From NCBI GenBank assembly GCA_019429125.1, contig JAHYJO010000021.1:1-16321 (forward strand): a DNA stretch of 16,321 nt, in the 5' to 3' direction. Shown piece after piece: positions 1 through 16,321 of the stretch. The first letter of the stretch is position 1; each line of letters starts with the position of its first letter. Origin of the DNA: Nanobdellati archaeon. Lineage in GTDB: Archaea; EX4484-52; GLR71. The position numbers and the translations under genes were made by a program. The notes beneath the pieces were generated by a model. The model made no database searches and was not told the origin of the DNA. It saw nothing but the letters and a program-made list of their open reading frames with translations.

Positions 1-157
1 CAGTAGCTAAACTTACTGAAAGTTTATTTGCAACCGTTATTGGTGCATTATTTTCTTTAATCAATAAACCTGCTTGAAGCTTCTTTTTTGCAAATTTATC
101 AGTTTCATTATTGATTGCATCAATAATGTTTTCAGAGGTAAAAGGTATATCTTTCAT
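1..157 (-). CDS. 5' part of a helix-turn-helix protein (IS630-transposase-N-terminus-like or HTH regulator), runs off the window
   Basis: My translation from ATG at 157 is open to the window edge: MKDIPFTSENIIDAINNETDKFAKKKLQAGLLIKENNAPITVANKLSVSLAT. 'KKLQAGLLIKE...ITVANKLSVSLAT' fits an HTH pattern. Not in the ORF track because it is truncated. Confidence 0.55.
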   Translation of the reverse strand, partial: MKDIPFTSENIIDAINNETDKFAKKKLQAGLLIKENNAPITVANKLSVSLAT

Positions 158-433
158 ACTAGATATTTAGTTTTTGATGTATATATAGTTTCTAAGTATT
201 TATCGCATTGACTATAAGTCATAGATTACTGAAGCGGTTATGGATTCGGAGTATATTGGAGTACCAGGTATCTTAAATTCTGCATATTTGTCTTGTCCTG
301 AGATTTCATTTATGTCGGCCGGCTTCGTTATTATTGGTTTTTTTGTGTGGGTTTATTTATTGGTCTTAAGATACGAGAAAACCGGATTGAAAAGATTTAA
401 AAATGATAGGGTTTATGTAATAATTAATGTTTA

Positions 434-976
434 TTGGTGGTATGTATTAAGATTATGATATCTGGGACGCCTGGTACGGGGAAGACGCAAGTGTCGGGCA
501 TTTTGGCTAAAAAGCTTGGGTTTGAGCTTATATCAGTAAATGATTTTGCTGAATCTCATGGGTTGGTAGAGGGGACTGATGAGGCGCGCGAGTCGTTAAT
601 TATTGATGAGGAAAAGCTTAAAGTTGAGATTGAAAAGCTTTCAGGGGATATTGTTTTAGAGGGACATCTTGCACATTTCTGTTATGCTGACCTTGTTGTA
701 ATCTTAAGGACGAATCCTCTCGAGCTTGAAAAACGGTTATTGTCGCGTAATTGGGCTCCTCAAAAAATAACTGAGAATGTTGAGGCTGAAATACTTGATA
801 TAATCTTGCAAGAAGCTGTAGAAATCAATAGCTATGTGGTCGAAATAGATACAAGTTCGGTTGACTCTGAGGCGGTGTCTAAGGTCATTTTTGATATGAT
901 TAAGAATAAGAATTATTCTGATTATAGGCCGGGAAATGTGTCTTGGGTTGCCTTTTTTGATATGCTTCCATTATGA
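434..976 (+). CDS. Adenylate kinase, AK6/Fap7 (hCINAP)-type archaeal nucleotide kinase
   Basis: Walker A GTPGTGKT, 'VLEGH' motif, 'VILRT', lid 'RLLSRNW..KITENVEAE', ~180 aa. True start may be GTG 437 or ATG 455. Confidence 0.9.
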   Translation: MVVCIKIMISGTPGTGKTQVSGILAKKLGFELISVNDFAESHGLVEGTDEARESLIIDEEKLKVEIEKLSGDIVLEGHLAHFCYADLVVILRTNPLELEKRLLSRNWAPQKITENVEAEILDIILQEAVEINSYVVEIDTSSVDSEAVSKVIFDMIKNKNYSDYRPGNVSWVAFFDMLPL

Positions 977-1056
977 TTTTATTAACTGTGTGATAGTTTT
1001 AGATACATTTATAAAAGTATGAGTCATAGTTATTCTGTGAATTATTTTTTCTATAT

Positions 1057-1893
1057 GTGACTAATATGTCAAAAATTATACGAATTATATTGATATTATC
1101 TGTACCTTTTATCTTATTTTTTTGTATAGGGCGTTTGTTGGGTGGTATGACGGGAGCATTTATAGGTCTTATTCTTTTTGGGTTGTACAGTGTCGTATCA
1201 TATTTTTATTCAGATAAGATAATTCTTCGCATGTATGGAGCAAAGGAATTACCTGTAAATAATAATGATGGCATCTATAAAGTGATTAAAGATTTGTCTG
1301 TACATGCAAAAATTCCAGCTCCTAAATTGTATATTGTTGATGTGGATACTCCTTCTGTATTTGTATGTGGGATGCGGAAACCTTTTGCAATTGCGGTCAC
1401 TTTTGGTCTTGTTCAAGTCTGTGATGAACGTGAAGTGGAGGCGGTTCTGTCTCGTGAGTTTGCGCAGATTTCTGGTGGTCATGTCTTGGTAAGCACGCTT
1501 TCTGCCATATTTTCGTTAGCTGTAATCTATCCTTTTGAAGTACTCTGGCGATATGGTGTGTCTCAAAATAAATATTTAGGGATTGTGTTACGTATGCCTG
1601 CGTTATTGGTGGCACCTTTTGCTGCTCTTTTTGTGCGCATGGGCAACAGACGGTCTTTTTCTATAGAACTTGATTGTATGGGTGCAAAATTGTCTAAGAA
1701 ACCAATATGTCTATCTTCAGCTCTTGAAAAGATATCGCGCGAGGTCAAATATAGACCCCTTAAGGTTGGCAGTCATGTGACATCAGCACTTTTTATATCA
1801 AATCCTTTTAATGGTTCTGTACTATCAAGATTCTTTTTGGTGCATCCTTCTCTTGAGGAGAGAATTGCTGGACTTGAGAAGTTGGTGGTATGA
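1057..1893 (+). CDS. htpX: HtpX-like M48 family membrane protein with degenerate zinc-binding site
   Basis: Two N-terminal TM helices, 'YFYSDKIILRMYGAK', 'AKIPAPKLYIV', 'IAVTFGL', 'LSSALEKI', 'ALFISNP', 'HPSLEERI' match HtpX, but HExxH reads REFAQ. Start GTG 1057 or ATG 1066. Confidence 0.85.
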   Translation: MTNMSKIIRIILILSVPFILFFCIGRLLGGMTGAFIGLILFGLYSVVSYFYSDKIILRMYGAKELPVNNNDGIYKVIKDLSVHAKIPAPKLYIVDVDTPSVFVCGMRKPFAIAVTFGLVQVCDEREVEAVLSREFAQISGGHVLVSTLSAIFSLAVIYPFEVLWRYGVSQNKYLGIVLRMPALLVAPFAALFVRMGNRRSFSIELDCMGAKLSKKPICLSSALEKISREVKYRPLKVGSHVTSALFISNPFNGSVLSRFFLVHPSLEERIAGLEKLVV

Positions 1894-1953
1894 ATACTTT
1901 TAAAAAGATTTTGAGTAAAGTTATATAGTATTATATATTTAAATGTGATTCTT

Positions 1954-2118
1954 ATGGCAAAACCAAGAAATGAAATCGCCGTTAAAAGGCTTTTTACAAA
2001 TGTGTATATCTGCATGAAATGCAATGCAAAGGTTCGATCCGGTAAAAAGGATGGGGTTAAATGCAGAAAATGCCATTCAACAGGCATGCGTCTTAAGAAC
2101 AAAGATATCAAAGGATAG
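1954..2118 (+). CDS. rpl40e: 50S ribosomal protein L40e
   Basis: 54-aa ORF below the track cutoff: MAKPRNEIAVKRLFTNVYICMKCNAKVRSGKKDGVKCRKCHSTGMRLKNKDIKG, with the CxxC...CRKC zinc ribbon of L40e. Confidence 0.92.
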   Translation: MAKPRNEIAVKRLFTNVYICMKCNAKVRSGKKDGVKCRKCHSTGMRLKNKDIKG

Positions 2119-2162
2119 ATAATATTATCCTATTATATATTTTTTCTTATATTTTTTTATAT

Positions 2163-2293
2163 GCTCTGGTGGCTCAGGGGTAGAGCGTTGCCTTGGTATG
2201 ACTGTAAGGGTATGTTATTGATATCCTGTGGATTTTTTATTTTTGCAGTTAACAAATAGGCAGAGGTCGCGCGTTCGATTCGCGTCCAGGGCT
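2163..2293 (+). tRNA. tRNA-Thr(GGT) with 59-nt intron at canonical 37/38 (2199-2257)
   Basis: Acceptor GCTCTGG/CCAGGGC plus T73, D stem GCTC/GAGC, anticodon stem TTGCC/GGCAG with loop TT-GGT-A|A, T arm GCGCG-TTCGATT-CGCGT. Relaxed BHB, intron stem GACTGTAA/TTGCAGTT, T-run follows. Confidence 0.92.
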
Positions 2294-2358
2294 TTTTTGG
2301 AATGGTAGTTTTTTATTTTGGTGTTTTTGTTTAGATTTATATGTGTAATTGTAGTTTT

Positions 2359-2677
2359 AGAGTTATAAATAATGAAAGCGCAAAAAAACTTCTCGGGGAT
2401 GAAATCTTAAAGAAAATTGCTCAGGAAATGACTGAAATTGTAAAAAAATACGTATATTGGCTGGAAAATGAGAGAGACTGTCAGAGCTAAACTTAGAGTT
2501 ATTGTGAAACGGTTGCTTAAAAAATACGGTTATCCTCCAGACAAAACTGCTATGGCTACAGACCTTATATTGGAGCAAGTTGAATCATTATCTGAAAAAT
2601 GGGTTGAAGATGAGGAAATGAATCCGTATATAATGCAATATGAAGAGAATATGGATGCTATTTTAGAGAAGAAATAA
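2359..2677 (+). pseudogene. hsdR: Remnant of type I restriction endonuclease subunit R C-terminus (DUF3387-like), frameshifted
   Basis: NNESAKKLLGDEILKKIAQEMTEIVK (2368-2445), then a frameshift in the A7 run (2442-2448) to NTYIGWKMRETVRAKLRVIVKRLLKKYGYPPDK..ATDLILEQ, the characteristic HsdR C-terminus. No upstream helicase/nuclease part. Confidence 0.85.
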
Positions 2678-2743
2678 ATCTTATGTTAATTTTTGGTATA
2701 TATTATATATTTGCTTTATTTGATTTCTTGGATGCCTTAATCC

Positions 2744-2912
2744 GGCACTGTTCATTTTTTTGAGTGATTTCAAACAAAATGTAGTTAATTAAATACCTTT
2801 ATTTCTTTTGTAATTCGACGTGAAATGTGTATATTAAATGGATTTCTGCAGGAGTTTATAAACAAACAATATTTAAAAAATATTCAAAATCACTCACTTT
2901 TTGGACAGTGCC
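2744..2912. mobile_element. 169-bp non-autonomous MITE (IS6- or IS1595-type ends) with 8-bp target-site duplication
   Basis: Left end GGCACTGTtcattttttTGAGTGATTT, right end (reverse complement) GGCACTGTccaaaaagTGAGTGATTT. Flanked by an exact direct repeat CTTAATCC at 2736-2743 and 2913-2920. No transposase ORF. Confidence 0.85.
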
Positions 2913-2926
2913 CTTAATCCAATATC

Positions 2927-2936
2927 TATTTAAATA
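2927..2936 (+). promoter_or_regulatory. Putative TATA box of trpS
   Basis: TATTTAAATA 20-30 nt upstream of ATG 2957, the spacing expected for a leaderless or short-leader archaeal transcript. AT-rich context lowers specificity. Confidence 0.45.
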
Positions 2937-2956
2937 TTATATTGTTAATTACAGGT

Positions 2957-4036
2957 ATGATATTTGATCCCTGGGGCGCTAACAAGATAACTGACTATGA
3001 ACATGCATTTACCAAATTCGGTCTTTCACGGTTTGATAAAGACACCTTTCCAATTGACCATTACCTTTTCAGGAGACATCTTATCATTGCGCACAGGGAT
3101 TTTGCTAAAGTTTATGATAGGATAAAATCTAAGAAGATTTTCCTGCAACTTACAGGGATTGCTTCATCTGGTGACCTTCATTTTGGGCATAAGGTGGATA
3201 TTGATCTTTTTAGGGTATTTAAAGGTCTTGGTGCTAAAGGATATTTCTGTGTGTGTGACCTTGATGCTTATACAAGTCGTGATGACAATAAAATACCTAC
3301 ACTTGCTGTTGCAAAAGTGCATGCGGTAAAAAATGTTGCTCACCTTCTCGCTTTTGGGTTTGATTCCTCTGATATATATGTCCAGTCGCGTAAAAGTAAC
3401 AGGTACTATGAGTTTGTATTTGAGATTTCTAAAAAGATAACAAGCAATATGTTTGAGGCTGTCTATGGTCACAAAGATCTTGGTAAGGTATCTGCTGTTC
3501 TTTTGCAATTGGCAGACATTATACATGTCCAGTTGCCTGAATTTTTTGGTAAGAATCCATCTGTTACTGGTATTGGTCTTGATCAGGATCCGCACGCTAA
3601 GATAACGCGCGATGTGACCAAAAAGTTACCGTATGATCTTGAAACACCGTCATTTGTTTATTTCCTTCATCAGTCTGGGCTTAAGGAAGGCAGTAAGATG
3701 AGTTCATCTGAGCCTGCAACTGCAATCTTTTTAGGAGATAGTGCTGATGCAGTAAAAAAGAAGATTAATAGGACATTTACTGGTGGTCGTGAGTCTTTAG
3801 AGGAACAGAAAGAAAAAGGTGGTAATCCTGATATATGTAAGGTTTATGAATTTTTTAGGTTCCATCATCCAGATGATAAGTATCTTTTGGATCTTACAAA
3901 AGATTGTATGGCAGGTAAAATCTTGTGCGGTGAGTGTAAGGGCAATTGCGTTAAGTTCATAAATGATTTCCTTTCTGTACATCAGAAAAAGTATGATGAA
4001 GCGTTGCCAACTGCTAAGAAAATTGTATATGGTTGA
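2957..4036 (+). CDS. trpS: Tryptophanyl-tRNA synthetase (archaeal type)
   Basis: Class I motifs HFGH and KMSSS, N-terminal DPWG..DY, 'HRDF', 'GLDQDPH', 'TFTGGR', C-terminal 'G.ILCGECK'. ATG 2957 preferred over TTG 2942. Confidence 0.95.
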   Translation: MIFDPWGANKITDYEHAFTKFGLSRFDKDTFPIDHYLFRRHLIIAHRDFAKVYDRIKSKKIFLQLTGIASSGDLHFGHKVDIDLFRVFKGLGAKGYFCVCDLDAYTSRDDNKIPTLAVAKVHAVKNVAHLLAFGFDSSDIYVQSRKSNRYYEFVFEISKKITSNMFEAVYGHKDLGKVSAVLLQLADIIHVQLPEFFGKNPSVTGIGLDQDPHAKITRDVTKKLPYDLETPSFVYFLHQSGLKEGSKMSSSEPATAIFLGDSADAVKKKINRTFTGGRESLEEQKEKGGNPDICKVYEFFRFHHPDDKYLLDLTKDCMAGKILCGECKGNCVKFINDFLSVHQKKYDEALPTAKKIVYG

Positions 4037-4081
4037 TTTTTTAACATAACCTATATAAACCATCTTCTATAAATAAGGGTT

Positions 4082-5515
4082 ATGGTGTTAAAGTCTAGGT
4101 CCAGTTTAGTTGTTTCTATTATATTTTTGGTTATGTTTTTGATGCAACCTGTTCTTGCGCAAGATCCGTTTTCAGTAAAGGTCTTGACTGAAAAACAATC
4201 TGTATATGTAGGTAATTCTGTTGATTATGTTATTGGTGTCACTAATAATCTTAATGAAGGTGTAGATGTCCAGATATTTCCGACTTCATCATACAGTAGT
4301 TGGTTTGCTACACAAGAAAATTATACGCAATATATAAGCCCAAATGGGACTGTTAATTTTAATGCTAGAATTGTACCTGCACTTGGGACATCAAGTGGTA
4401 ATATTGTAATCACTGTAAGTGTCTGTAAGGTGCGAAGCAATGTGTGTTCTGATACTTTCATAAATATGCAAGTTATAGATAAATCCCAGCTGAAGATATT
4501 GAGCTTTGAACCTGAATCGTCAGAATCACCTATGAATGCTGGAGCAAAATTTATATTTCGTCTGGAAAATCTTGGAGAATCAAATATAATATCCTACAAG
4601 TTGCAAGTTGATGCTTTTGATTTAAATGGTAATTTGGTATCAAACAGGACTGTTGATCTTGATAAGATTCCTACAAAGTCATTATATCCTCGTGATAGTG
4701 ATGCATCTGTACTTCTTGTTTTTGATGTTATTGGCACTTATGATGTATATGCAAAAATAATTGACAGCACTGGTGGTGTTGTGCAGACTGAAACTTCAAA
4801 GATTACAATAACTGTTCCTCCTGAAGTCAAGACTGAAATAATTGATAAGAATACAGTTCCGGGTATATTATTTGAAAAGACAACATATTTTATTCAAAAT
4901 ATGAATTCAAAAGTTAATAGTGTTACTGTAACCCATCCTGTTTTTTTAGTACCGTTCATATATTCTTTTTCAGAGGCACCTGAAATTGTTGAAATTGATG
5001 GTGTGAAATCCTTTGTTTGGGTTTGTGATTTGGCAATTTCGGGTAATGATGGTGATTCTTGTGAATTTAGTCTAACTGCTAATTATTGGGTTATTTACCT
5101 TGCAATAATTATGTTGTTTATTTTGGCAGGGTTTATTTATGCTGAGATTGAGAAGCCTAAGATAAAAAAGACGCACATAAATAAGGGTGAACTTCATTCG
5201 GTTCATATATCTATTAAGAATAATAGTTCAAAACCTCTTGAGGATGTTACGGTGACAGATGTTTTACCGTCTGTGCTTAAACTTGTCGGAGAGTATACTG
5301 TAAAACCTACAAGTATTATAAAAAAACATAATAGTGTTGAATTGGTCTGGGGTATAGGCAAATTAAAAAGCAAGGAAGAACGTGTTCTGACGTATAATGT
5401 GAAACCTATTGTAGAGGTTGAAGGGGGGATAGATTTACCTGCTGTTGAGATAAAAGCGGTCAATGCGCGAGGTAAGCATGAGAAAGTCATGTCAAAGTCT
5501 ATTGTATTGTCTTGA
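4082..5515 (+). CDS. Secreted/membrane-anchored protein: signal peptide, beta-rich (Ig/CARDB-like) extracellular region, single TM helix, C-terminal DUF11-like domain
   Basis: Signal peptide ending 'QPVLA', beta-strand-rich body with N-x-S/T sequons, TM 'YWVIYLAIIMLFILAGFIY', then 'VHISIKNNS..LEDVTVTDVLP...LVWGIGKLKSKEERVLTY'. Confidence 0.75.
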   Translation: MVLKSRSSLVVSIIFLVMFLMQPVLAQDPFSVKVLTEKQSVYVGNSVDYVIGVTNNLNEGVDVQIFPTSSYSSWFATQENYTQYISPNGTVNFNARIVPALGTSSGNIVITVSVCKVRSNVCSDTFINMQVIDKSQLKILSFEPESSESPMNAGAKFIFRLENLGESNIISYKLQVDAFDLNGNLVSNRTVDLDKIPTKSLYPRDSDASVLLVFDVIGTYDVYAKIIDSTGGVVQTETSKITITVPPEVKTEIIDKNTVPGILFEKTTYFIQNMNSKVNSVTVTHPVFLVPFIYSFSEAPEIVEIDGVKSFVWVCDLAISGNDGDSCEFSLTANYWVIYLAIIMLFILAGFIYAEIEKPKIKKTHINKGELHSVHISIKNNSSKPLEDVTVTDVLPSVLKLVGEYTVKPTSIIKKHNSVELVWGIGKLKSKEERVLTYNVKPIVEVEGGIDLPAVEIKAVNARGKHEKVMSKSIVLS

Positions 5516-5592
5516 TATTGGTATTTTGAACCATTGGTTTTAAAAAACTTTTTAGTGTATTATATAGGTATTGATTTTTATTTTTTATTTAT

Positions 5593-5738
5593 CCCGCCTT
5601 AGCTCAACCTGGAAGGCATAGTTTTTGTCTGGGGATTAGAGCACTCGGCTGTAGTCGAATACACAAGCGTGTTTTCGTCAGTTAGCCTGTGTTCGTATAG
5701 TGACCGAGGTGTTCCCAGTTCAAATCTGGGAGGCGGGA
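5593..5738 (+). tRNA. tRNA-Tyr(GTA) with two introns: D-loop (~5613-5636) and canonical 37/38 (5655-5702)
   Basis: C1-G72 acceptor CCCGCCT/AGGCGGG plus A73, D stem GCTC/GAGC, anticodon stem CTCGG/CCGAG with loop CT-GTA-G|A, T arm CCCAG-TTCAAAT-CTGGG. Canonical intron BHB helix CTGT/ATAG and stem CGAATACA/TGTGTTCG. Confidence 0.93.
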
Positions 5739-5753
5739 TTCTTTTTTCTTTTT
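5739..5753 (+). terminator. Oligo-T terminator after tRNA-Tyr
   Basis: TTCTTTTTTCTTTTT immediately after the discriminator base. Confidence 0.55.
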
Positions 5754-6242
5754 GTTTATTTGATATTTATGATTTTTTTTGTCTTGTGTGTGTGTTATAT
5801 TTATAATATTTGAAATATAGTTATTAGTGTAGTTATCAGTATAATTTTATTTATTTAGGATGTGTGTTATATGGATTGTGGGATTAAACTTGATTATTCC
5901 GCACGAGTTTGTGTGATTATATGGAATGAAAAGTCTATGTCTGCTTTTTTTGACGAAAACGGTATTGATTATTCTGTTAGCAGGGTATGATGTTACAGGG
6001 GATGAAATCTATTGTTTTGTATCTATGGGACCAGTTCAGATATCTTTATGTGATGGGCTTAAACATAATCGTTTTACACAGGCAGATAAAGAAATAAATT
6101 GTAGTTTAGATGCTGAAGAATTCTTTTTGCTTATGTAAAATGATTAAAAATCCATGATTTTTGTGTATTTTTTGGTTTTATTTCGTTTTTGTACTCGTAA
6201 AAAAGCAAATCTTTATAAACTTCTTTAGGGGGTACAGTTACC

Positions 6243-6250
6243 TTTATAAA
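6243..6250 (+). promoter_or_regulatory. TATA box of the 5S rRNA-tRNA-Asp unit
   Basis: TTTATAAA 22-29 nt upstream of the 5S 5' end. A second identical CTTTATAAA at 6211-6219 suggests tandem promoters. Confidence 0.6.
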
Positions 6251-6271
6251 GCTTATTGATGTATAGTATTA

Positions 6272-6385
6272 AGTTGGCGGTCATAGCGAAGGGGTACACC
6301 TGTTCTCATCTCGAACACAGAAGTTAAGCCCTTCAGCGAATTGAGTGGTACTGTCTTTCGACGGGAAGCTTAGGACGCTGCCACT
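6272..6385 (+). rRNA. rrf: 5S ribosomal RNA (not linked to 16S/23S)
   Basis: GGCGGTCATAGCG...TACACCTGTTCTCATCTCGAACACAGAAGTTAAGCC...GGTACTG...CGGGAA...CGCTGCC follows the archaeal 5S consensus. Terminal helix TGGCGG/CTGCCA, ~114 nt. Confidence 0.95.
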
Positions 6386-6400
6386 ATTTATATTTACAAT

Positions 6401-6565
6401 GCTCTGGTAGTGTAGTTGGCCTATCATCTGAGACTGTCACTCTTAGAACCCGGGTTCAAAATTCGTAAAAAATAATATTTTTAAATCAAATCATAATTTT
6501 TGGATAATCGGATTAAATTCGGTTATTCATATATTTTTTTGCGTTTGAAAATCCCGGCCAGGGCG
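6401..6565 (+). tRNA. tRNA-Asp(GTC) with 91-nt intron in the T-loop at 59/60 (6461-6551)
   Basis: Acceptor GCTCTGG/CCAGGGC plus G73, D arm GTGTAGTTGGCCTATCAT, anticodon arm TGAGA-CT-GTC-AC-TCTTA, T stem CCGGG/CCCGG split after TTCAAA. BHB helix TTCA/TGAA, intron stem CGTAAAAAA/TTTTTTGCG. Confidence 0.9.
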
Positions 6566-6697
6566 TTGTCTTTAAGATAATTCAAAATTTAATATATATA
6601 TATAAGGTATGGGATATGCGCACTTCCAAGATAAGTTTTTGTTTCTGATGTATTTATATGTTAGTCAGAACTATGCTTTTTTTGGTTTGATTTGTGT

Positions 6698-6945
6698 GGG
6701 CTCGTAGCTCAGTCTGGCTAGAGCACCGGACTCTTAATCCGGGTGTCGAGGGTTCAAAACAATCGGTGCTCCGTTGACGCGCAGTTGACGTTCGATTTTG
6801 TTGAAATCGGAATCAATGTTTATTGTTGAATTATAATTTTTGCGCGAAGAAGTACTGGACTGTCATGCCACCTGAGCAAAAGCGAAGGGTGTCGCTGGTT
6901 GTCAACCGTTTATGGATGGTTGTTGGGAATTTCCCTTCGGGCTCA
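6698..6945 (+). tRNA. tRNA-Lys(CTT) with ~173-nt intron in the T-loop at 59/60 (6759-6931)
   Basis: 5' exon GGGCTCG-TA-GCTC-AGTCTGGCTA-GAGC-A-CCGGA-CT-CTT-AA-TCCGG-GTGTC-GAGGG-TTCAAA. 3' exon T-CCCTT-CGGGCTC-A at 6932-6945 completes the T and acceptor stems with 3 G-U pairs. Relaxed BHB TTC/GAA, intron stem AACAATCG/TGGTTGTT. Confidence 0.85.
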
Positions 6946-7082
6946 TATAAAGAATCAAAAAATGAAAAGACGGTTTCCTATGGATTCCTATTTTCGCACA
7001 TATCCTTTCATTATATGTATGGTTTTTGGATTTACTGATTATATTAAAATTGTAATGTTATGTGACTATAGGGGCGATATAC

Positions 7083-7316
7083 TTGAATGATGACGAAATA
7101 AAAAATCATGTGCTTGTTCCAAAGCATGAAATTCTTAATGCTAAGGATAAAGATGCTGTTCTTAAAAAATATAATATAACTGTTGAACAGCTACCAAAAA
7201 TATTGAAAGAGGATGCTGCAATAAAGTCGTTTGGTGTTAAAACTGGCGATGTTGTTAAGATAACAAGAAAATCTGTTACGGCTGGCATTTCAACATATTT
7301 TAGGACTGTTATTTAA
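7083..7316 (+). CDS. rpoH: DNA-directed RNA polymerase subunit H (Rpo5)
   Basis: 'HVLVPKHEIL', 'QLPKI', 'GDVVKITRKS.TAG...YFR'. TTG 7083 after GGGGCGA preferred, GTG 7062 is possible. Confidence 0.96.
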   Translation: MNDDEIKNHVLVPKHEILNAKDKDAVLKKYNITVEQLPKILKEDAAIKSFGVKTGDVVKITRKSVTAGISTYFRTVI

Positions 7317-7327
7317 GGTGAGATGTT

Positions 7328-8806
7328 ATGATTAATTCATTTTTAAGATATTCACGGGATACTGGCGGACTCTTATCGCATCAGATTGAGTCATTCAATG
7401 ATTTTATAGAACATAGATTGCAACAGATTGTTGATGACATTGGTGAAGTAAAGATAGATTTGCCAACTGAAGAGAATTTGGTCATTCGTTTCGGTAAAGT
7501 TCAGATTGGACCTCCTGAAATAAAGGAGAGTGACGGGTCAACAAAATATTTGAACCCTACTGAAGCAAGACTTCGAAAACTTACTTATTCTTCTACATTA
7601 TATATTGAGATGACTCCTGTCTTTGAAGATGTGGAGCATGAAACTACATATGTAAACATTGGTGACTTTCCTATAATGGTCAAATCAAATTTGTGTCCTC
7701 TTTCTGGATTGTCAAAAGAGGAATTGATTCAGGCTGGCGAAGACCAATATGATATGGGTGGTTATTTTATAATTAATGGTGTGGAGCGTGTGCTTATTCT
7801 TTTTGAAGATATTGCACCTAATCGGTTGATTTTTCAAAAGAAAAAAGACGAAATCAATGCGCGAATAGATTCAAAGAACCGAGGTTACACTCAAAGGCAT
7901 GTATTTGAACGAAAAGAAGAAGGCACAATAGTTGCACGATTTGCAAATATTGCAACTACACCTTTACCGCTTGTTGCTATCATGAAAGCTCTTGGTCTTG
8001 AAATTGATAAGGATATAATCAATACAATCTTTAAGGGTAAAGAACCTTCTGAAAATATACTTCTTAACCTATACATGACTGAACTGTCTGGAAGAGATGA
8101 TGCAATCGCATATATAGGCAAAGTTCTTAAGATAGTAAAGAAAGAGCAAGTTAATGATCGTGTTGAGCATTTGCTTGACAATTATCTATTGCCTCATTTG
8201 GGTCAGGATGCTTCAAGCCGTCTGCTTAAGGCAAAATATCTTGCAAGTATAATGGGTAAGATGGAACTATTATATGAGGGTAAGATAGATGATGATATAG
8301 ATCATTATGCAAACAAGAGATTAAGACTTGCGGGCGATCTTTTAGAATCTGTGTTAAGATCTACAATACTTGGTAGATGGGGTCTTGTTGCAAGGTTACA
8401 GTATAATTATCAAAAAATGATTAAAAGAGGACGAAGACTTCCAAGTCTGCAAAGTATTGTCATAACTGGTGTACTTACAAAACAGATTATGCGTGCTATG
8501 GCAGTTGGTGATTTTGCGAATCAGACTGGTGTCAGTCAGAGGCTTGAACGAAGTAACTTTGTAAGATCTTTAGGTCATATGAGAGGTGTTGTGTCTCCGT
8601 TGTCGTCAACACAAGAACATTATGAGGCAAGAGAACTTCATGCAACTCATTGGGGCAGGCTTTGTGCTGTACGAACTCCTGAAGGACAAAATATTGGTCT
8701 TAGGAAATTCCTTGCACTTGGTGCTAAAGTGACTACTGATTCTTATGAAGAAGAAACAGAACAAGTTAAATCTGTATTAGAGGGATTAGGTGTTAAAAAT
8801 GAGTGA
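7328..8806 (+). CDS. rpoB2: DNA-directed RNA polymerase subunit B'' (Rpo2N)
   Basis: 'HQIESFNDF', 'P.EARLRKLTY', 'GGYFIINGVERV', 'DDIDHYANKRLRLAG', 'ARELHATHWGRLC...TPEG.NIGL'. SD AGGTGA at 7316-7321. Confidence 0.96.
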   Translation: MINSFLRYSRDTGGLLSHQIESFNDFIEHRLQQIVDDIGEVKIDLPTEENLVIRFGKVQIGPPEIKESDGSTKYLNPTEARLRKLTYSSTLYIEMTPVFEDVEHETTYVNIGDFPIMVKSNLCPLSGLSKEELIQAGEDQYDMGGYFIINGVERVLILFEDIAPNRLIFQKKKDEINARIDSKNRGYTQRHVFERKEEGTIVARFANIATTPLPLVAIMKALGLEIDKDIINTIFKGKEPSENILLNLYMTELSGRDDAIAYIGKVLKIVKKEQVNDRVEHLLDNYLLPHLGQDASSRLLKAKYLASIMGKMELLYEGKIDDDIDHYANKRLRLAGDLLESVLRSTILGRWGLVARLQYNYQKMIKRGRRLPSLQSIVITGVLTKQIMRAMAVGDFANQTGVSQRLERSNFVRSLGHMRGVVSPLSSTQEHYEARELHATHWGRLCAVRTPEGQNIGLRKFLALGAKVTTDSYEEETEQVKSVLEGLGVKNE

Positions 8807-10592
8807 AGTGTATGTTAATGGTTATTTTGCTGGTGAGCATGACAAGCCTTTAGAACTTGTTAAAGCACTTATAGAAAAAAGAAGAGTCAATAAGTTACCT
8901 GAGACTATGAATGTCGCTTATCATGTTGATAAAGACGAAGTGCAGATAAATGTTGATTCTGGCCGTGTAAGAAGACCTCTTGTTGTAGTAAACAATGGTG
9001 TGGCTTTGCTTACTGTTGATATGGGTGAGAAACTAAAAAAAGGAGAAATCTCTTGGGCTGATATTCTTAAAAAAAATATTGTTGAATATCTTGATGCTGA
9101 AGAAGAAGAAAATGCATATATTGCAGTTTCAAGAGAGGAACTTACATCTGAACACACTCATATGGAGCTTGATGGTATATTGATTTTAGGTGTTGCGGCA
9201 TCTGTTTTAGTATTCCCTGAGAAGAATCGTGGTGACCGTCTGAATTATGGGTCTCGTATGGCAGTCCAGTCTATAGGGATTCCTTTACAGAATTTCCTTA
9301 TGCGTGATGATACTACTTATAATGTTTTGGTATATCCACAAGTTCCTATAGTTAGGACTGATAGTATGGATGCTATAGGTCTTGAATCACATCCATCCGG
9401 TCATAATCTTGTAATTGCTGTATCTACTTATTACGGTTATAATGTTGAAGATGCTCTTATAGTAAACAAAGCTTCTCTTGAGAGAGGTATTGGACGTTCT
9501 GTTGCATTTAGGTCTTTTGTGACTGAATTTAGACGGTATTGGGGTGGTCAGGAAGATGAAGTATGTATCCCTGATGCAAGCGTAAAAGGATATCGTAGTG
9601 AAGAGGATTATTCAAATCTTGATGAACAAGGGATTATTGAAATAGAATCTAAAGTTCCTGCAGGTAGCGTTCTTGTTGGTAAGATTTCTCCGTTACGTTT
9701 CCTTGGTGTAGCTAAAGAGATTAAGATGGGTCTTCAGAATTTCAGAGATAATTCACTTACTGTATCAAATGGTAATGATGGTATTGTTGAAAAAGTAGTT
9801 CTTACTTCAGATTCAGAAGGAAATAAAATATTGTCGGTAGTTGTCCGTGATACAAAAATTCCTGAAGTGGGTGATAAGATGGCTACAAGACATGGTCAAA
9901 AAGGTGTTATTGGTCTTGTTGTCCCTGAAGAGGATATGCCATTTACTGCTGATGGTATTGTACCTGATATAATTGTTAATCCTCATGCTATGCCATCACG
10001 TATGACTGTGGGTCAGCTTCTTGAGATTGTTGCGGGTAAAGTTGGTGCTCTAGCTGCTGAAAGAATTAACGGTAGTATTTTCTGCGGTAAGGAAGATAAT
10101 ATACGGACTGAATTGAAGTCATTAGGATTCAGAGATGATGGTAAAGAGACATTATATAATGGTATCACTAGTGAAAAGATGGAAGTACCTATACTTACTG
10201 GTATAACATATTATTATAGACTTTATCATCTGGTATCAAAAAAGATTCATGCAAGGTCAAAGGGTCCTGTTGCACTGATGACAAAACAGCCAACTGAAGG
10301 TCGTTCAAAAGAAGGTGGACTAAGACTTGGGGAGATGGAAAAAGATTGTTTCATCGCACATGGTGCTCCGATAACTCTTAGAGAACGGTTTGGATCTGAT
10401 AAGGTTTCAATACCAATTTGTAAAACCTGTGGTGTAGTTGCGGTTGAAGATCATATAAAGAACAAGAAATATTGTCCTTTATGTAAAAATGAAGCAATCG
10501 TCAATGTTGAGATGGCTTATGCTTTCAAGTTGATGCTTGATGAGCTTAAGAGTCTGTTGATATATCCACAGATTATACCGGAGAACTCTTAA
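8799..10592 (+). CDS. rpoB1: DNA-directed RNA polymerase subunit B' (Rpo2C)
   Basis: 'GYNVEDA', 'GDKMATRHGQKG', 'PDIIVNPHAMPSRMTVGQ', 'QPTEGRSKEGGLRLGEME', C-terminal CxxC...CPLC zinc site. ATG 8799 overlaps the B'' stop. Confidence 0.96.
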   Translation: MSEVYVNGYFAGEHDKPLELVKALIEKRRVNKLPETMNVAYHVDKDEVQINVDSGRVRRPLVVVNNGVALLTVDMGEKLKKGEISWADILKKNIVEYLDAEEEENAYIAVSREELTSEHTHMELDGILILGVAASVLVFPEKNRGDRLNYGSRMAVQSIGIPLQNFLMRDDTTYNVLVYPQVPIVRTDSMDAIGLESHPSGHNLVIAVSTYYGYNVEDALIVNKASLERGIGRSVAFRSFVTEFRRYWGGQEDEVCIPDASVKGYRSEEDYSNLDEQGIIEIESKVPAGSVLVGKISPLRFLGVAKEIKMGLQNFRDNSLTVSNGNDGIVEKVVLTSDSEGNKILSVVVRDTKIPEVGDKMATRHGQKGVIGLVVPEEDMPFTADGIVPDIIVNPHAMPSRMTVGQLLEIVAGKVGALAAERINGSIFCGKEDNIRTELKSLGFRDDGKETLYNGITSEKMEVPILTGITYYYRLYHLVSKKIHARSKGPVALMTKQPTEGRSKEGGLRLGEMEKDCFIAHGAPITLRERFGSDKVSIPICKTCGVVAVEDHIKNKKYCPLCKNEAIVNVEMAYAFKLMLDELKSLLIYPQIIPENS

Positions 10593-10611
10593 TTAAGGTG
10601 TGTGATTTGAT

Positions 10612-13104
10612 ATGGTAATGATTGACAAAATTAAATTTAAGCTGCTTTCACCAAAGATGGTTCAGAAGATGTCTGCAGTCCTCATAACTACATCTGAAGT
10701 ATATGATGCAGATGCATATCCTGTTGAGGGTGGTGTCATGGATACTCGTATGGGTGTTATTGACCCAGGTATCAGATGTAAGACTTGCGGGGGTAGATCA
10801 GGTGAGTGTCAGGGTCATTTTGGACACATAGAACTTGCAAAACCAGTGTATAATATCTTGTATCTTAAACAGATAAAGACTATGCTTACATACACATGTA
10901 ATGATTGTGGTGGGCTTTTGGTCGATAAGGATAAGATTAAAGATGACAAGACATTAAACAAGCTTACGGTCCCTAAGACGTGTCCGGTGTGCAATGAACC
11001 TGTTGAAAAAATAAAGTTTGAAAGACCTATGTCGTTTAAGAGGGGCAATCATGTTATAACTGCTGAAGAAGCAAGAGAACATTTTGAAAAGATCTCTGAT
11101 GAAGATTGTGATTCTCTTGGTTTTAAGGGTGGTAGGCCTGAATGGATGATTCTCACCATATTCCCTGTGCCTTCAATAACTACAAGACCATCTATTACTC
11201 TTACAAGCGGTGAGAGAAGTGAAGATGATCTTACGCATAAGCTTGTGGATATTGTTAGGATTAATCAGAGACTTTTGAATAATCTTGAGATAGGTGCACC
11301 CGAATTTATTCTTGATGATCTTTGGGAACTTTTACAGTACCATGTCGCTACTTATTTTAATAATGAGATGACAGGTGTTCCACCTGCAAGGCACAGATCA
11401 GGACGACAGCTTAAGACATTGTCTCAGAGATTAAAATCAAAAGATGGAAGGTTCCGAAATAATTTGACAGGTAAGAGGGTTAATTTCTCTGCAAGGACTG
11501 TTGTTTCACCTGATCCAATGATTAGTGTCAATGAGGTCGGTATTCCAGAAAAGATAGCAAGCGAGCTTACTATCCCTATAAGAGGTACTAAAGATAATCT
11601 TGATTATTTGAAAGCATGCATATTGCGTGGGCCTAATGCAAAAGGTGGCGCAAATTATGTAATAAGACCTGATGGCCTTAAGAAGAAAATCATTGATATG
11701 AATAAAGAATATATCATGAATGAGTTTGCTGAAGGGTATATTTTAGAGAAACACATAAGTGATGGTGATATTGTATTATTTAACAGGCAACCGTCACTTC
11801 ATAAGATGTCATTGATGGCTCATAGGGTAAAAGTTTTACCTTACAAGACATTTAGGCTTAACCTTACTGTATGTACTCCGTACAATGCGGATTTTGATGG
11901 AGATGAAATGAATCTTCATGTTCCTCAGACTGCTGAAGCACGTGCTGAAGCAGAACAGTTGATGCTTGTTGAGCAGAATATACGTTCTCCTCGTTTCGGT
12001 GGACCTATAATTGGGGGTGTGCAAGATTTCATATCTGGTGGGTATCTTATAACACGAGAAGGTACTACTATTTCAAAAGAGCTTGCATCTCAGCTTTTGT
12101 TCAAAGTTGGTGTTGTTGTTGTTCTTAAGAAAGAGATATATACAGGAAAAGAATTGATGAGTTTCATACTACCTAAAGGTCTTGATATCGAGTATCAGGC
12201 AAATATATGTAAAAAGTGTGATGTCTGTAAGAAAGAAAAGTGTATGCACGATGCTTACGTTAAGATTGTTGATGGTGAATTCATTTCAGGAGTGATTGAT
12301 CAGAAAGCGATATCACCATTTAAAGGAAAAATCTTAGATAAGATTGATTTGGAATTTGGACATAGTGTGGCTGTGTTGTTCCTTGAAAGGATAACACGAT
12401 TGGCAACTGAGTATCTTATGTATCGTGGATTTACAATATCTGTTAGTGAAGAAGATGTGCCACAATCTGTTAAAGATGCTATTAGTGAGTTTGTTGATGT
12501 GCATTTTGTCAAGGTATATGCTTTGATTGATGAGTTCAATAAAGGAAAGATTGAGGTTCAGCCAGGACTTACTCCTGAGGAGACACTTGAAGGTCTTATA
12601 CTTTCTGAGCTGTTTGAAGTTGTTAACAAGAGTCAAAATCTAATTGCAAAAGAAGCAAAAGATAATGATGCACAGATAATGGCAAAGACTGGAGCTAGAG
12701 GTAGTATTCAAAATCTTACTTTCATGGCAGGTATAATCGGTCCTGAAACTGTACAAGGTCACAGGATATTCAGAGGGTATAAAGATCGTACATTGCCTCA
12801 TTATAAGAGGGGCGATCTTTCTGCTGAAGCTCACGGTTTTGTTAAGTCATGTTATAAGACCGGATTATCACCTACTGAATTTTTCTTTGAGGCTATGAAA
12901 GGTCGTGAAGGTATAATGGATTCTTCTCTTAAGACAAGAATATCGGGGTATATGCAGAGGCGTCTTGTGAATGCCTTGCAAGATATACTTGTATCAAAAG
13001 ATAACTCTGCAAGAGACAGTATTGGGCGGATTGTCCAGTTTGTTGCAGGTGAAGATGGTATTGACCCATCAAAAAGTGATGGTGGCAAGCTGATAAAGAT
13101 TTGA
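10612..13104 (+). CDS. rpoA1: DNA-directed RNA polymerase subunit A' (Rpo1N)
   Basis: 'C.TC...C.GHFGHIEL', '[19 protein letters not shown]', 'NRQPSLH', catalytic '[11 protein letters not shown]', '[12 protein letters not shown]'. Confidence 0.97.
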
Positions 13105-13124
13105 GGTTAACTGTGGTGATTATT

Positions 13125-14273
13125 ATGGATGAATCAGTTGTTCAAGATGTTTTGGGACTTTACGAAGAAAAGATAGATAAATCAGATTTGAGTGCTAAAG
13201 AAAAAAGTGCATTGAAAAAATCTCTTAAAGATAGATACACTAATATGTATTATGATTGTGGGGAGGCTATTGGTGTTATTGCTGCTCAGTCAATTTCTGA
13301 GCCGGCAACACAGACAACTCTTAGGTCTTATCATAGGGCTGCTGGTATTGGGCTTAATATAACTCAAGGTTTACCAAGGATTCTTGAAATATTTGACGCA
13401 CGAAAAGAACCTGTTACTCCTGCAATGAAAATATATCTTCAAAAAGAATTCAATACTAAAGAGAAAGCAATTAAGATTGCAGCGAGCATAAAAGAGACTA
13501 ATCTTAAGCATATAATGACTTTGGATTCATTGGATCTTGGAAATATGACTGTTGAAGTTGAGCTTGATAAAAAATTGATTGAAAAGTTGTCTATTGAGCC
13601 TGATAAGATTGTGTCTGCAGTAAAACGTAAGATAAAGAATTTAAATGGTAGTATTGAGGGCAATAAGATAATCTTTGAGATTAATAAAGATAAGGTGACA
13701 GTCAAAGATCTTCAGACATTAAGGTTTAAGCTTAGAGAAGTCCATGTGAAAGGTATAAAAGGCATTACACATTGTATTGTTGAAAAGACTTCAAATGAGT
13801 TTGTACTTTATACGCTTGGGTCTAATTTAATTAAAGTTTCAAAGATTGAAGGTATAGATATATCTCGTATGAAGTCAAATAATATATTTGAGATTGTAGA
13901 GACATTAGGTATTGAAGCTGCAAGAACTACTATCGTTTCAGAAATTACTGATACTCTTAGAGGACAAGGTGTGGATACAGATGTAAGGCATCTTCTTTTA
14001 GTTGCAGATACCATGACTCAGTCTGGAGATATACAAGCAATAGGACGATATGGTCTTAGTGGTTCTAAGTCTTCTGTACTTGCAAGAGCAAATTTTGAAG
14101 AGACTATAAAACATCTTGTTGATGCGGCGGTACATGGTCTGTCTGATGAACTTAATGGTATTGTTGAAAATGTCATGATAGGTAAGACTGCAAGAGTAGG
14201 TACTGGTCTTGTAGAAGTTGTTATGAAAACACAGGAAACACCTGTCAAGGTTGTTAAAGAAAAGAAAGAATAA
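13125..14273 (+). CDS. rpoA2: DNA-directed RNA polymerase subunit A'' (Rpo1C)
   Basis: '[18 protein letters not shown]', '[12 protein letters not shown]', 'LGIEAAR', '[15 protein letters not shown]', 'SVLARANFE'. ATG 13125 after GGTGA preferred over TTG 13101. Confidence 0.96.
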
Positions 14274-14557
14274 TGGTGAAACTTATGGATATAAGTCTAA
14301 AAATAAAAAAAGCAGAAACAACGGGTAATCTAATAATCGGTATAAAAAGTGTTATGTCTGCAGTACGTCAAGGTAATTTAACTGATGTAGTAATCGCATC
14401 AAATTGTCCTAAAGTGATGATTGATGAAGTAGTTCATACTGCAAAACTTTCAGAAGTTCCTGTAACTTTTTTTGAGGGGGATAGTAACAACCTTGGAGAA
14501 ATATGCAGGAAACCATTTACTATAGCTGTTTTGGGCATATCTGAAAAGAAAGCATAA
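14273..14557 (+). CDS. rpl30e: 50S ribosomal protein L30e
   Basis: 'TGNLIIG', 'VIASNCP', 'LGEICRKPF', in the conserved position after rpoA''. Confidence 0.94.
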   Translation: MVKLMDISLKIKKAETTGNLIIGIKSVMSAVRQGNLTDVVIASNCPKVMIDEVVHTAKLSEVPVTFFEGDSNNLGEICRKPFTIAVLGISEKKA

Positions 14558-14596
14558 CGTTGTATCATATAGGTTATAATATATTGTAGGGATCTT

Positions 14597-15022
14597 ATGA
14601 AACCGCTTGACACACAGACAATACGTGATATTTTACAATTTGAGCAACTTTCAAAATGTAATGTTGTGGACAGTATATTTGATGAAGATATATTATATCT
14701 TCTAGTTCGGACCAAAAATATATATGATATCATTGGTAAAGATGGAGAAAACATAAAGCGTTTAAGTGCTAAAGTGGGAAAGACACTTAAAGTATCTCTT
14801 TACTCAAATGATTTGAATCAGTTCCTTTCGAATGTTTTTCAGAGAAAAGTTAAAAGATTTGAAGTGTATGAAGAGGATGGAGTTAAAAAGATTCGTCTTT
14901 ATGTACCTTTAAAAGATAAGCGTTTTATTGTCGGTCAAAAAGGAAATAATATAAAGATTATGGGCGAATTCCTTAAAAGACAATTTCATATTACTAAAAT
15001 TGATATTGTTGATTTAAAATAG
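14597..15022 (+). CDS. nusA: Archaeal NusA (two KH domains)
   Basis: 141 aa with two GxxG KH loops (IIGKDGENIK, IVGQKGNNIK), located between L30e and S12. Confidence 0.92.
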   Translation: MKPLDTQTIRDILQFEQLSKCNVVDSIFDEDILYLLVRTKNIYDIIGKDGENIKRLSAKVGKTLKVSLYSNDLNQFLSNVFQRKVKRFEVYEEDGVKKIRLYVPLKDKRFIVGQKGNNIKIMGEFLKRQFHITKIDIVDLK

Positions 15023-15057
15023 ATGGATTTAATAAATAATTATATAAAGGTGTTGAA

Positions 15058-15477
15058 ATGCCAGGATTATACAGTGCACGAAATTTGAAGTCAAAGAAGA
15101 AGAAACAGAGATGGCAAGATATAAAGTACAAGCGTCGTACGCTTGGGCTTAAAGTCAAGAAAGATCCTCTTAAAGGTAGTCCGCAAGCTAAGGCTATTGT
15201 TCTTGAAAAGAGACAGATGGAAGCAAAACAGCCAAACTCTGCAATGCGGAAATGCGTAAGGATTCAGCTTATCAAGAATGGTAAACAGATTACTGCCTTT
15301 GTTCCTGGTAATGGTGCAATAAATCATATTAAAGAGCATGATGAAGTTACTGTGGAAGGTATTGGTGGTGCACAGGGTGGACCATATGGAGATATTCCAT
15401 GTGTTAAATGGAGAGTTAATAAAGTTAATGGGCTTTCGCTTCTAGCACTTCTTTCAGGTAAATCAAAGAGACAATAA
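15058..15477 (+). CDS. rps12: 30S ribosomal protein S12 (uS12)
   Basis: 'GLYSAR', '[17 protein letters not shown]', 'TAFVPG.GA', 'GDIP'. Confidence 0.97.
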
Positions 15478-15487
15478 GGTAATAATT

Positions 15488-16090
15488 ATGAGTGATGATA
15501 TAAAACTTTTTGACCGATGGGAAACTGAAGGAGTCAAAGTTAATGATTTAGGTCTTGTTGGATATATTAATCTTAAACCAATCCTTGTACCACGTTCTGG
15601 CGGAAGGCACGCAAAGGCTCAGTTCTATAAGTCTAAGCTTCATATTGTTGAGCGACTTATAAACAGGCTTTTTGTTGCAGGTCACAAAGGACGAAAACAT
15701 AAATTTACATCTGGACAGAATGTTGGTAAGACTTTTATGGCTACAAAGCTTGTTGTTGATGCATTTGATATTGTTGAAAAGAAAACAAGTACTAATCCTG
15801 TTGAAGTTTTTGTTCGTGCAATTGAGAACTCCGCACCTATTGAAGAAGTAACTACTTTTAAACGTGGTGGTATGACTTCTCGAGAGGGTGTTGTGACATC
15901 TCCTCAGAGAAGAGTTGATCTTGCTTTGAGGCATATGACTCAGGGAACTTATGCAAGTTCTGTCAAGAACAAGAAGATTGCTTCTCAGTGTCTTGCTGAT
16001 GAAATACTTTTCGCATTCAATAATGATATGAAGAGTAAAGCTGTTAGTGAAAGACAGAGAAGAGAAAAAGAAGCTCAAGGTTCAAGATAA
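15488..16090 (+). CDS. rps7: 30S ribosomal protein S7 (uS7)
   Basis: 'KLFDRW', 'IVERLIN', 'NPVEVFVRAIENSAP.EE', 'SPQRRVDLALR', 'CLADE'. Confidence 0.97.
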   Translation: MSDDIKLFDRWETEGVKVNDLGLVGYINLKPILVPRSGGRHAKAQFYKSKLHIVERLINRLFVAGHKGRKHKFTSGQNVGKTFMATKLVVDAFDIVEKKTSTNPVEVFVRAIENSAPIEEVTTFKRGGMTSREGVVTSPQRRVDLALRHMTQGTYASSVKNKKIASQCLADEILFAFNNDMKSKAVSERQRREKEAQGSR

Positions 16091-16096
16091 GGTTTG

Positions 16097-16137
16097 TGTC
16101 TTTTATCTTTTTTCATTTCATTTTTTATTATTTTTAT
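16097..16137 (+). terminator. Oligo-T terminator region ending the rpo-rps operon
   Basis: Several T4-T7 runs directly after the rps7 stop codon. Confidence 0.55.
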
Positions 16138-16321
16138 TGTACTTGTTTAGCAAAAACATAAATTCTTTATCAGCATCTGCTTAAGTTCTGCTTTTATATC
16201 TCAAGTTTGGGACTTCCCGGAAAAGACCGCCGAATTTGGGCACTACAGCCAATTTCCTAGTTACGAATTAAATTTAAAGAAGGTGATTCAATCTTAAGTT
16301 TTTTGAAAATATCTTCAGTTT

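Follow-up and report, generated by a model that had tools for sequence, protein, structure and literature searches.

The tRNA-Lys(CTT) gene at positions 6698 to 6945 of a 16,321-nt stretch of archaeal DNA (the window; contig JAHYJO010000021.1, positions 1 to 16,321, of assembly GCA_019429125.1) is interrupted in its T-loop by 173 nt of additional sequence. No other tRNA-Lys(CUU) gene was found, and the insert, at position 59/60, is probably a bona fide bulge-helix-bulge (BHB) intron representing the long form of a lineage-specific, multi-copy intron family that exchanges between tRNA genes; a product acting in trans is not required to account for it. An earlier note made from the window had pointed to the insert and proposed that the tRNA serves as a launch pad for a circular functional RNA. 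Its observation was largely right and its interpretation partly so: the intron is real, conserved and structured, and it belongs to a family that is spreading. The window is contig C6 of its genome (G000; 1.16 Mb in 32 contigs, 34% GC, 93% complete), which was compared with seven congeners (G001 to G007), two genomes from other genera of the same family (G008 and G009), and one from another family (G015).

A tRNA-Lys gene split in the T-loop

Exon 1 (6698 to 6758, + strand; tRNA positions 1 to 59) was delimited from the sequence, ARAGORN and Rfam, and contains the 5′ strand of the acceptor stem, the D arm, the anticodon arm with CTT, the variable loop, the T-stem strand GAGGG and the T-loop sequence TTCAAA. 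As the earlier note stated, the gene stops there, at 6758, and the 14 nt that it lacks are found 173 nt further on. These make up exon 2 (6932 to 6945, + strand), which supplies T60, the 3′ strand of the T stem (CCCTT), the 3′ strand of the acceptor stem (CGGGCTC) and the discriminator A, and which was assigned from the sequence and from ARAGORN after intron removal. The T stem pairs 6748 to 6752 with 6933 to 6937. When the 173-nt intron (6759 to 6931, + strand; 90.2 bits and E 1.3e-18 against the family model R1 described below) was taken out, the exons joined into a complete cloverleaf of 75 nt and ARAGORN called a regular tRNA-Lys(ctt). The higher GC content reported for the insert also holds, with 0.43-0.48 in the tRNA and intron as compared to 0.28-0.33 in the flanks.

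With the insert left in place, ARAGORN and Rfam each read 6698 to 6772 as a contiguous tRNA. That a contiguous 75-nt tRNA can be forced here is what would be expected of a dead or disrupted tRNA gene, or of the scar of an integrated element with a duplicated attachment site, neither of which would be spliced. The contiguous tRNA is mismatched: its T and acceptor stems both contain non-standard pairs in the Rfam alignment, which scores only 34.6 bits, whereas exon 2 completes the cloverleaf exactly. Both exons are conserved at 100% in congeners (exon 1 is identical in G001, G003 and G006) while the intron and flanks vary, and the same split with a BHB motif recurs in dozens of tRNA genes. An intact tRNA-Lys(CTT) elsewhere in the genome, which the earlier note had named as evidence for a pseudogene, was not detected by ARAGORN or BLAST in the 93%-complete assembly, leaving this as the only such gene found. 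A dead gene is hardly credible in light of these results. The attachment-site reading was rejected, as no segment of the tRNA is duplicated and the 173-nt insert contains no open reading frame (ORF) of its own.

The ends of the insert form a BHB motif, in agreement with the T-loop intron that had been claimed. Its hBHBh′ layout runs from the T stem through the bulge TT|T, the 4-bp central helix H (TTCA:GGAA) and the bulge AA|A to the inner helix P1, with the register taken from related introns. The 5′ half (6753 to 6759, + strand) comprises the helix strand TTCA (6753 to 6756) and the 3-nt bulge AA|A (6757 to 6759), and the 3′ half (6926 to 6932, + strand) comprises the strand GGAA (6926 to 6929) and the bulge TT|T (6930 to 6932), both identified by sequence and comparison. 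Helix H has three pairs and an A6756·G6926 mismatch in this copy, making the motif slightly relaxed; in 13 family members taken together, 92.3% of the cells of this helix are paired. In BHB motifs, cleavage follows the second bulge base, and the cuts predicted by this rule, after 6758 and after 6931, coincide exactly with the intron boundaries given in the earlier note.

The genome encodes a single EndA (contig C19), an alpha-type protein of 189 aa that scores 92.5 bits to PF01974. Its best single-unit structure match is the M. jannaschii enzyme 1a79 (E 4.7e-26), and a 7-residue insertion aligns with a similar stretch in the ARMAN-2 EndA 4fz2. RtcB is encoded on a further contig (C12:2467-3768; 564.9 bits). 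In the splicing pathway that we propose, the pre-tRNA would fold such that TTCA of the T-loop pairs with GGAA at the 3′ end of the intron, presenting two 3-nt bulges between the T stem and P1. The single 189-aa EndA would then cut after 6758 and after 6931, and RtcB would join the exons into the 75-nt tRNA and probably circularize the intron. A look-up of sequencing runs for this stretch listed none of RNA and four of DNA, the latter containing 5-7% of its sequence words.

One intron family in many tRNA genes

A split-T-arm scan combined with model searches revealed at least ten tRNA genes of the same genome that carry introns at 59/60, ranging from 40 to 173 nt. By inspection of the anticodon loops, these are Gln(CTG), Asp(GTC), Lys(CTT), Leu(TAA), His(GTG), Pro(GGG), Arg(CCT), Gly(CCC), Arg(GCG), and Ser(GGA); three other rows of the scan were false positives and were dropped. 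ARAGORN called 30 tRNAs in this genome, mis-read tRNA-Lys(CTT), and missed at least nine more genes with T-loop introns. For annotation, this means that such introns lead ARAGORN to mis-read or miss tRNA genes, including a tRNA-Asp in the window. In another of these genes, tRNA-Pro(GGG) at C17:8005-8281 (L081), which also goes undetected by ARAGORN, two introns are present, one of ∼36 nt in the D-loop region and one of 168 nt in the T-loop.

A covariance model (R1) was built from 13 introns and used to search the ten genomes of the taxonomic family. Nine contained matches, namely the genome of the window and all seven congeners (two to 13 matches each) as well as G008; G009 had no match. Among 59 matches in fetched loci, five were partial and set aside, and the other 54 were examined. 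For 33 of the 41 matches that scored at least 74 bits, ARAGORN named the host once the insert was removed, and these hosts span 12 anticodons: Lys(ctt) and Ser(gga) with seven each, Leu(taa) with five, Glu(ttc) with four, His(gtg) with three, and Lys(ttt), Gly(tcc), Gly(ccc), Thr(cgt), Arg(tcg), Arg(tct), and Gln(ttg) with one each. The remaining eight carry further introns and by eye correspond to Pro(GGG), Arg, and a possible Tyr. All copies found within tRNA introns of the examined genus sit at one site, 59/60. The taxonomic class holds the same 42 genomes as the order, and a wider search there yielded nothing beyond the genera of family f1. In metagenome contigs, one 18-nt degenerate pattern hit at least 118 stretches, and R1 matched none of the 80 loci scanned among those listed, indicating chance hits.

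Conservation among relatives, the lack of which the earlier note had named as a ground for refutation, was found. A family intron occupies tRNA-Lys(CTT) upstream of rpoH in G000 and in G001 to G006, or seven of the eight genus genomes; tRNA-Lys(CTT) was not seen for G007. The site in tRNA-Ser(GGA) is likewise occupied in seven of the eight. The tRNA-Lys genes seen in the other two genera are uninterrupted (anticodon CTT in G009, TTT in G008).

The orthologous tRNA-Lys(CTT) introns are 101-122 nt long. They have the 5′ two-thirds in common with the copy in the window and lack ∼65 nt near the 3′ end. Together with introns of 40-46 nt at 59/60 of other genes in the same genome, this speaks against length as a sign of special function, as it had been read. 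The additional 3′ module is common to the tRNA-Pro(GGG) introns of G000, G006, and G007 (161-168 nt), and a diverged form is present in a 161-nt tRNA-Glu intron of G008. Over shared columns, the Lys(CTT) intron of the window is 68-76% identical to the Pro(GGG) introns as compared to 52-58% for its six orthologs. The Lys introns of G005 and G002 are 68-74% identical to the tRNA-His intron of G000, and are identical to each other except at the tip of hairpin P4 (see below), where both arms have been replaced; the same tips occur in the His introns of other genomes. Since the Lys(CTT) copy is closer to the Pro(GGG) introns than to orthologous Lys introns, intron type does not follow the host tRNA, and whole introns or portions of them move from one tRNA gene to another.

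A fold conserved by compensatory changes

The earlier note held that the insert folds extensively. As a single sequence it does not do so beyond chance: its minimum free energy (MFE), −46.6 kcal/mol, is close to the average of −44.6 for shuffled versions (z −0.52), of which 56 out of 200 fold as well; for the whole pre-tRNA, the z score against shuffles was −1.88. Because the single-sequence energy is not above chance, the case for structure rests on comparison. RNAalifold applied to 13 introns aligned with MAFFT yielded two hairpins, the small HP1 and the long P4, together with the long-range helix P3. In this alignment, 93.3% of cells are paired versus 33-55% with a slid partner, both partners change in 14 of the 29 pairs, and the covariation score was reached by none of 500 shuffles. 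Among 44 copies of the core, 92.5% of cells are paired (36-48% with slid partners) and 13 of 18 pairs change on both sides. In 257 pairs of copies that are 75-99% identical, 622 of 867 changed base pairs were altered on both sides, and pairing is retained in 586 of them; all of these pairing counts are descriptive, as the copies are related, were found by similarity to a model, and were treated as independent. Six helices (P1, P2′, P3, P4, P5, and P6) are common to five long introns, which come from three tRNA species in two genera, with compensatory changes in 21 of 56 predicted pairs. The covariation that the earlier note proposed to look for among related introns is thus present, and the pairing of the fold is clearly under selection.

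The consensus of the five long introns was mapped to the + strand of the window. P1, the inner helix h′ of the BHB, pairs 6760 to 6763 with 6922 to 6925. The segment 6764 to 6775, which shows compensatory G:C to A:U changes, either forms the 5′ strand of P2′ with 6849 to 6857 as partner or closes locally into HP1 with a conserved ..CU loop. In long forms, the HP1 region takes the former option, pairing with a conserved AGUAC stretch after P3, and G007 carries a G:C to A:U change in this helix. The 5′ strand of P3 lies in the GCGCA region at 6778 to 6783 (partner 6841 to 6846), as found by RNAalifold and in the long-intron consensus. In P4, which spans 6784 to 6817, a purine is bulged, the UUC/GAA base is conserved and the tip varies; nine of its 12 pairs change on both sides among the 44 core copies. 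An AT-rich linker, unpaired in the alignment, runs from 6818 to 6840 between P4 and the 3′ strand of P3; that it might be a TATA-like promoter was weighed by eye and set aside. The long-intron consensus adds two hairpins that are restricted to the long form: P5 at 6858 to 6903, with an internal loop UGA/GAAG and an AAAA-capped tip, and the small hairpin P6 (AACC/GGTT) at 6904 to 6921.

The five complementary pairs listed in the earlier note all lie where it placed them except TCGCT, which is one base off at 6892 to 6896. Three correspond to conserved helices: the closing stem (an alternative P1 with its register shifted by one), GCGCA/TGCGC (P3), and the hairpin at 6791 to 6811 (the tip of P4). 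The other two, GTTGAC/GTCAAC and AGCGA/TCGCT, are absent from the consensus of related long introns and were rejected. The internal loop of P5 was also considered as a kink-turn, and this was dropped since, by eye, its bulge and GA arrangement misfit the kink-turn consensus. Hairpins of the P5 type (stem CACC/GGUG, loop UGA/GAAK, a 2-bp tip and a tetraloop) also occur outside the intron, at C22:37383-37401 (−) and C23:7592-7606 (−) of the same genome and downstream of tRNA-Lys(TTT) in G004 (L052). One copy lies within the 5′ leader of tRNA-Ser(CGA), and there was no Rfam match.

A rod-like P1-P2′-P3-P4 fold, with P5 and P6 as side hairpins in long forms, is kept by selection. The simplest reason would be that it keeps the distant halves of the BHB in contact, or that the element cannot spread without it. 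We rank a cis role in keeping the BHB halves in contact ahead of a role in the spread of the element, and both ahead of a function in trans. Some unpaired bases are also invariant in the 44 copies, namely the loop C and U and both G21 and G23 of an AGGCG stretch, although this invariance is partly due to ascertainment, as the copies were found by similarity to the model.

Core copies outside introns, related systems and neighboring genes

A second model (R2), consisting of HP1, the spacer, and P4, was searched against the 42 genomes of the order. Ten contained matches: the genome of the window and the seven congeners (two to 18 each), G015 (three), and G009 (one weak partial match), with the other 32 lacking any. 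In G000, a complete HP1-P3-P4 element, linker and P3 3′ strand included, directly follows the discriminator base of tRNA-Ala(GGC) (C17:37414-37530, L144). The trailer of tRNA-Ala(GGC) contains such a copy in G006 (C66, L138) and G007 (C100, L137) as well, making three species in all, and trailer elements begin 0-4 nt after the discriminator base. In tRNA-Lys(TTT), the element is in the trailer in G006 and G007, in the T-loop in G004, and absent in G000. A further 11 core copies are intergenic, in G004, G005, and G001; four of them begin at most 20 nt from a stop codon on the same strand, two of these four being orthologous, and most are followed by a run of at least five T. When intron, trailer, and free copies were aligned, 14 columns were invariant through HP1-P4, and the T-runs that follow P4 in free copies were interrupted in introns. 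With these T-runs, the free copies look like terminators. Because the core is also present after tRNA genes and in intergenic DNA, copies inside and outside introns have a common origin, with HP1 and P4 as a self-contained module.

Several smaller observations concern these loci. The next ORF begins ∼10 nt after the tRNA-Ala(GGC) trailer element. Free HP1-P4 loci were recorded in G004 (L124, L126, L128, L131, L132, L133, L139), G005 (L125, L130), and G001 (L119); some start at or just past a stop codon, and the upstream ORF ends resemble uL16 and FtsZ by eye. In G015 (L140, L141, L142), the core lies within short tandem repeats and in the anticodon-loop region of what by eye resembles a tRNA-Trp(CCA) gene.

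These settings raise the possibility, which we hold only tentatively, that HP1-P4 constitutes, in this DPANN genus, a structured RNA module in its own right, standing at gene ends with T-runs, behind tRNA genes, and inside BHB introns with a broken T-run. If so, a non-intronic hairpin element captured between BHB-forming ends would be a route for the birth of archaeal tRNA introns; if the process runs the other way, tRNA processing would serve to launch a small RNA. Both directions would offer a concrete and still active system for how archaeal tRNA introns arrive.

Applied to the whole family, the proposal of the earlier note becomes that tRNA genes are launch pads for a functional small RNA: the HP1-P3-P4 RNA, joined in long forms by P5 and P6, would act in trans, for example in protein binding. 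It would be released from T-loop introns by EndA, probably as a circle, or from trailers by tRNA 3′ processing. The conserved fold with its compensatory changes, the invariant unpaired bases, the high occupancy of the tRNA-Lys(CTT) and tRNA-Ser(GGA) sites, and the long architecture kept between two genera are all consistent with such an RNA. Trailer elements begin so close to the discriminator that tRNA processing would set their 5′ end, and the position of the core directly after tRNA-Ala(GGC) in three species lends the launch-pad idea indirect support. Working against it, each genome holds two to 18 diverged copies instead of one gene, some family members are only ∼45 nt, and the core is missing altogether from other 59/60 introns. 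Conservation does not extend to the linker, and when five linkers were compared with the 16S, 23S, and 5S rRNAs of the same genome, the longest perfect complement was 6-9 nt, no better than in shuffles. Guide RNAs of the box C/D type carry the consensus RUGAUGA (box C) and CUGA (box D), and no RTGATGA within one mismatch was present on either strand of 6498 to 7007. Rfam returned nothing for the intron or core in a gathering-threshold scan of the window, a scan of 6600 to 7100 at E up to 10, or seven related loci. Intergenic copies have no flanking processing site, and their presence in ordinary intergenic DNA with T-runs argues for a more generic module than a launch-pad product. A trans-acting intron RNA is possible but, in our judgment, unlikely, and the claim of a singular intron-encoded RNA gives way to one copy of a multi-copy, exchanging family that has no box C/D signature and no Rfam family.

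The multiple copies, whose number varies between congeners, their restriction to one genus and a few relatives (ten of 42 genomes with R2), the independence of intron subtype from tRNA identity, the mosaic swapping of P4 tips, and the intergenic copies would also suit a selfish mobile DNA element. Such an element, resembling miniature inverted-repeat transposable elements (MITEs) or PATEs, would insert in T-loops and intergenic sites and survive in tRNAs where its ends form a BHB. A search of five genomes recovered no Y1 transposase and no reverse transcriptase, and a TnpB-like domain in one of the five. The T-loop junctions show neither target-site duplications nor terminal inverted repeats, and two exact patterns gave 0 matches each on viral contigs. 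IS200/IS605-type elements have paired ends that are alike, unlike the HP1 and P4 hairpins, which differ from each other. We consider mobility of this kind very improbable.

Several results also weigh against the BHB intron reading that we favor. The A·G mismatch in helix H is a departure from ten of the 13 family members, which keep the fourth A-U pair. The BHB-compatible comparative structure has an energy of −59.4 kcal/mol as compared to −81.1 kcal/mol for the single-sequence MFE. The genome also has 59/60 introns of 40-46 nt, which show that splicing needs no P2-P6, and for this reason a cis scaffold accounts only in part for the retention of the modules. The invariant unpaired bases and the tRNA-Ala trailer copies kept in three species hint at specific recognition. 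EndA of the alpha4 type is classically strict. A broader specificity conferred by the inserted loop would be taken from a paper, which links a C-terminal loop in DPANN alpha4 EndA to more tRNA gene disruption and broader specificity (PMC5829648).

In ARMAN-2, pre-tRNA-Cys(GCA) and pre-tRNA-Pro(GGG) carry introns at 59/60 with BHB or relaxed BHB junctions, which EndA cleaves in vitro (PMC3239211). The site, the junction type, and the DPANN host are shared with the family described here, and removal by EndA in vitro was shown for ARMAN-2. EndA here is a single 189-aa alpha unit, unlike the three-unit epsilon2 enzyme of ARMAN-2, the intron is far longer, and a family conserved in sequence and structure extends over at least 12 tRNA species. 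The closest precedent for the exchange is in Thermoproteales, where very similar introns occur in different isoacceptor tRNA genes and were ascribed to transposition by a mechanism called unknown (Fujishima et al. 2010, as cited in PMC4090602). In both cases, similar introns are distributed across isoacceptors without following tRNA phylogeny. The phylum differs, however, and the present introns occupy one site, 59/60, versus many positions, and have a conserved multi-helix fold. They also have homologous copies outside introns, of which the accessible part of that source (PMC4090602) gives no description.

The euryarchaeal tRNA-Trp intron, a box C/D guide RNA (PMC12558985, PMC4090602), is similarly long and conserved, and its release by EndA and circularization set a precedent for functional intron RNA. 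The intron described here differs in having no box C and no Rfam match of the snoRNA type, in its site (59/60 versus 37/38), and in occurring as many copies in many tRNAs versus one. Metazoan tRNA intronic circular RNAs (tricRNAs) are stable circles that arise from tRNA introns through a conserved endonuclease and ligase pathway (PMC4536317); those are eukaryotic and come from the canonical intron position, whereas the circle here is predicted. In open-access main texts, we found neither a report of 59/60 introns in Nanohaloarchaea-like DPANN that form a conserved multi-helix family nor one of intron homologs in tRNA trailers or intergenic DNA. A 2026 preprint on Asgard tRNA introns states that their arrival route "remains open" (10.64898/2026.10.13.758758). 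The genus studied here joins a young single-site intron family, inter-gene exchange, length variants of ∼45-173 nt, and homologs outside introns, and because it offers these features together, presence and absence, donors, and intermediates can be compared directly.

The surroundings of the gene contribute to the identification of its host. A scan of the window with Rfam placed a 5S rRNA gene at 6273 to 6386, upstream of tRNA-Lys(CTT). From their order and sizes, the ORFs downstream are presumably the archaeal rpoH, split rpoB, rpoA′, and rpoA″ cluster, within which we take the 492-aa ORF at 7328 to 8806 to be a fragment of RNA polymerase subunit B. Its nearest public relatives (84-97% identity) are in metagenome-assembled genomes labeled Candidatus Nanohaloarchaea, Aenigmatarchaeota, or Nanobdellati, and one 85% match with a bacterial label was taken as a mis-binned contig. 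Because of the labels on these closest relatives, the organism is, judging from sequence, a DPANN-type archaeon.

Three further tRNA genes of this genome contain introns of note. Between the 5S rRNA gene and tRNA-Lys(CTT), tRNA-Asp(GTC) (6401 to 6565, + strand), missed by both ARAGORN and Rfam, contains a 91-nt 59/60 T-loop intron (6461 to 6551) with a TTCA/TGAA central helix and a T7 run within the intron. A tRNA-Trp(CCA) gene at C13:60019-60211 (−) has a 120-nt intron at the canonical position with GATGATC- and CTGA-like motifs, and may be of the usual box C/D type. Also in the window, tRNA-Thr(GGT) (2163 to 2293, + strand) was found with the ARAGORN intron option and by Rfam (45.2 bits), and carries a 59-nt intron at the canonical anticodon-loop position.

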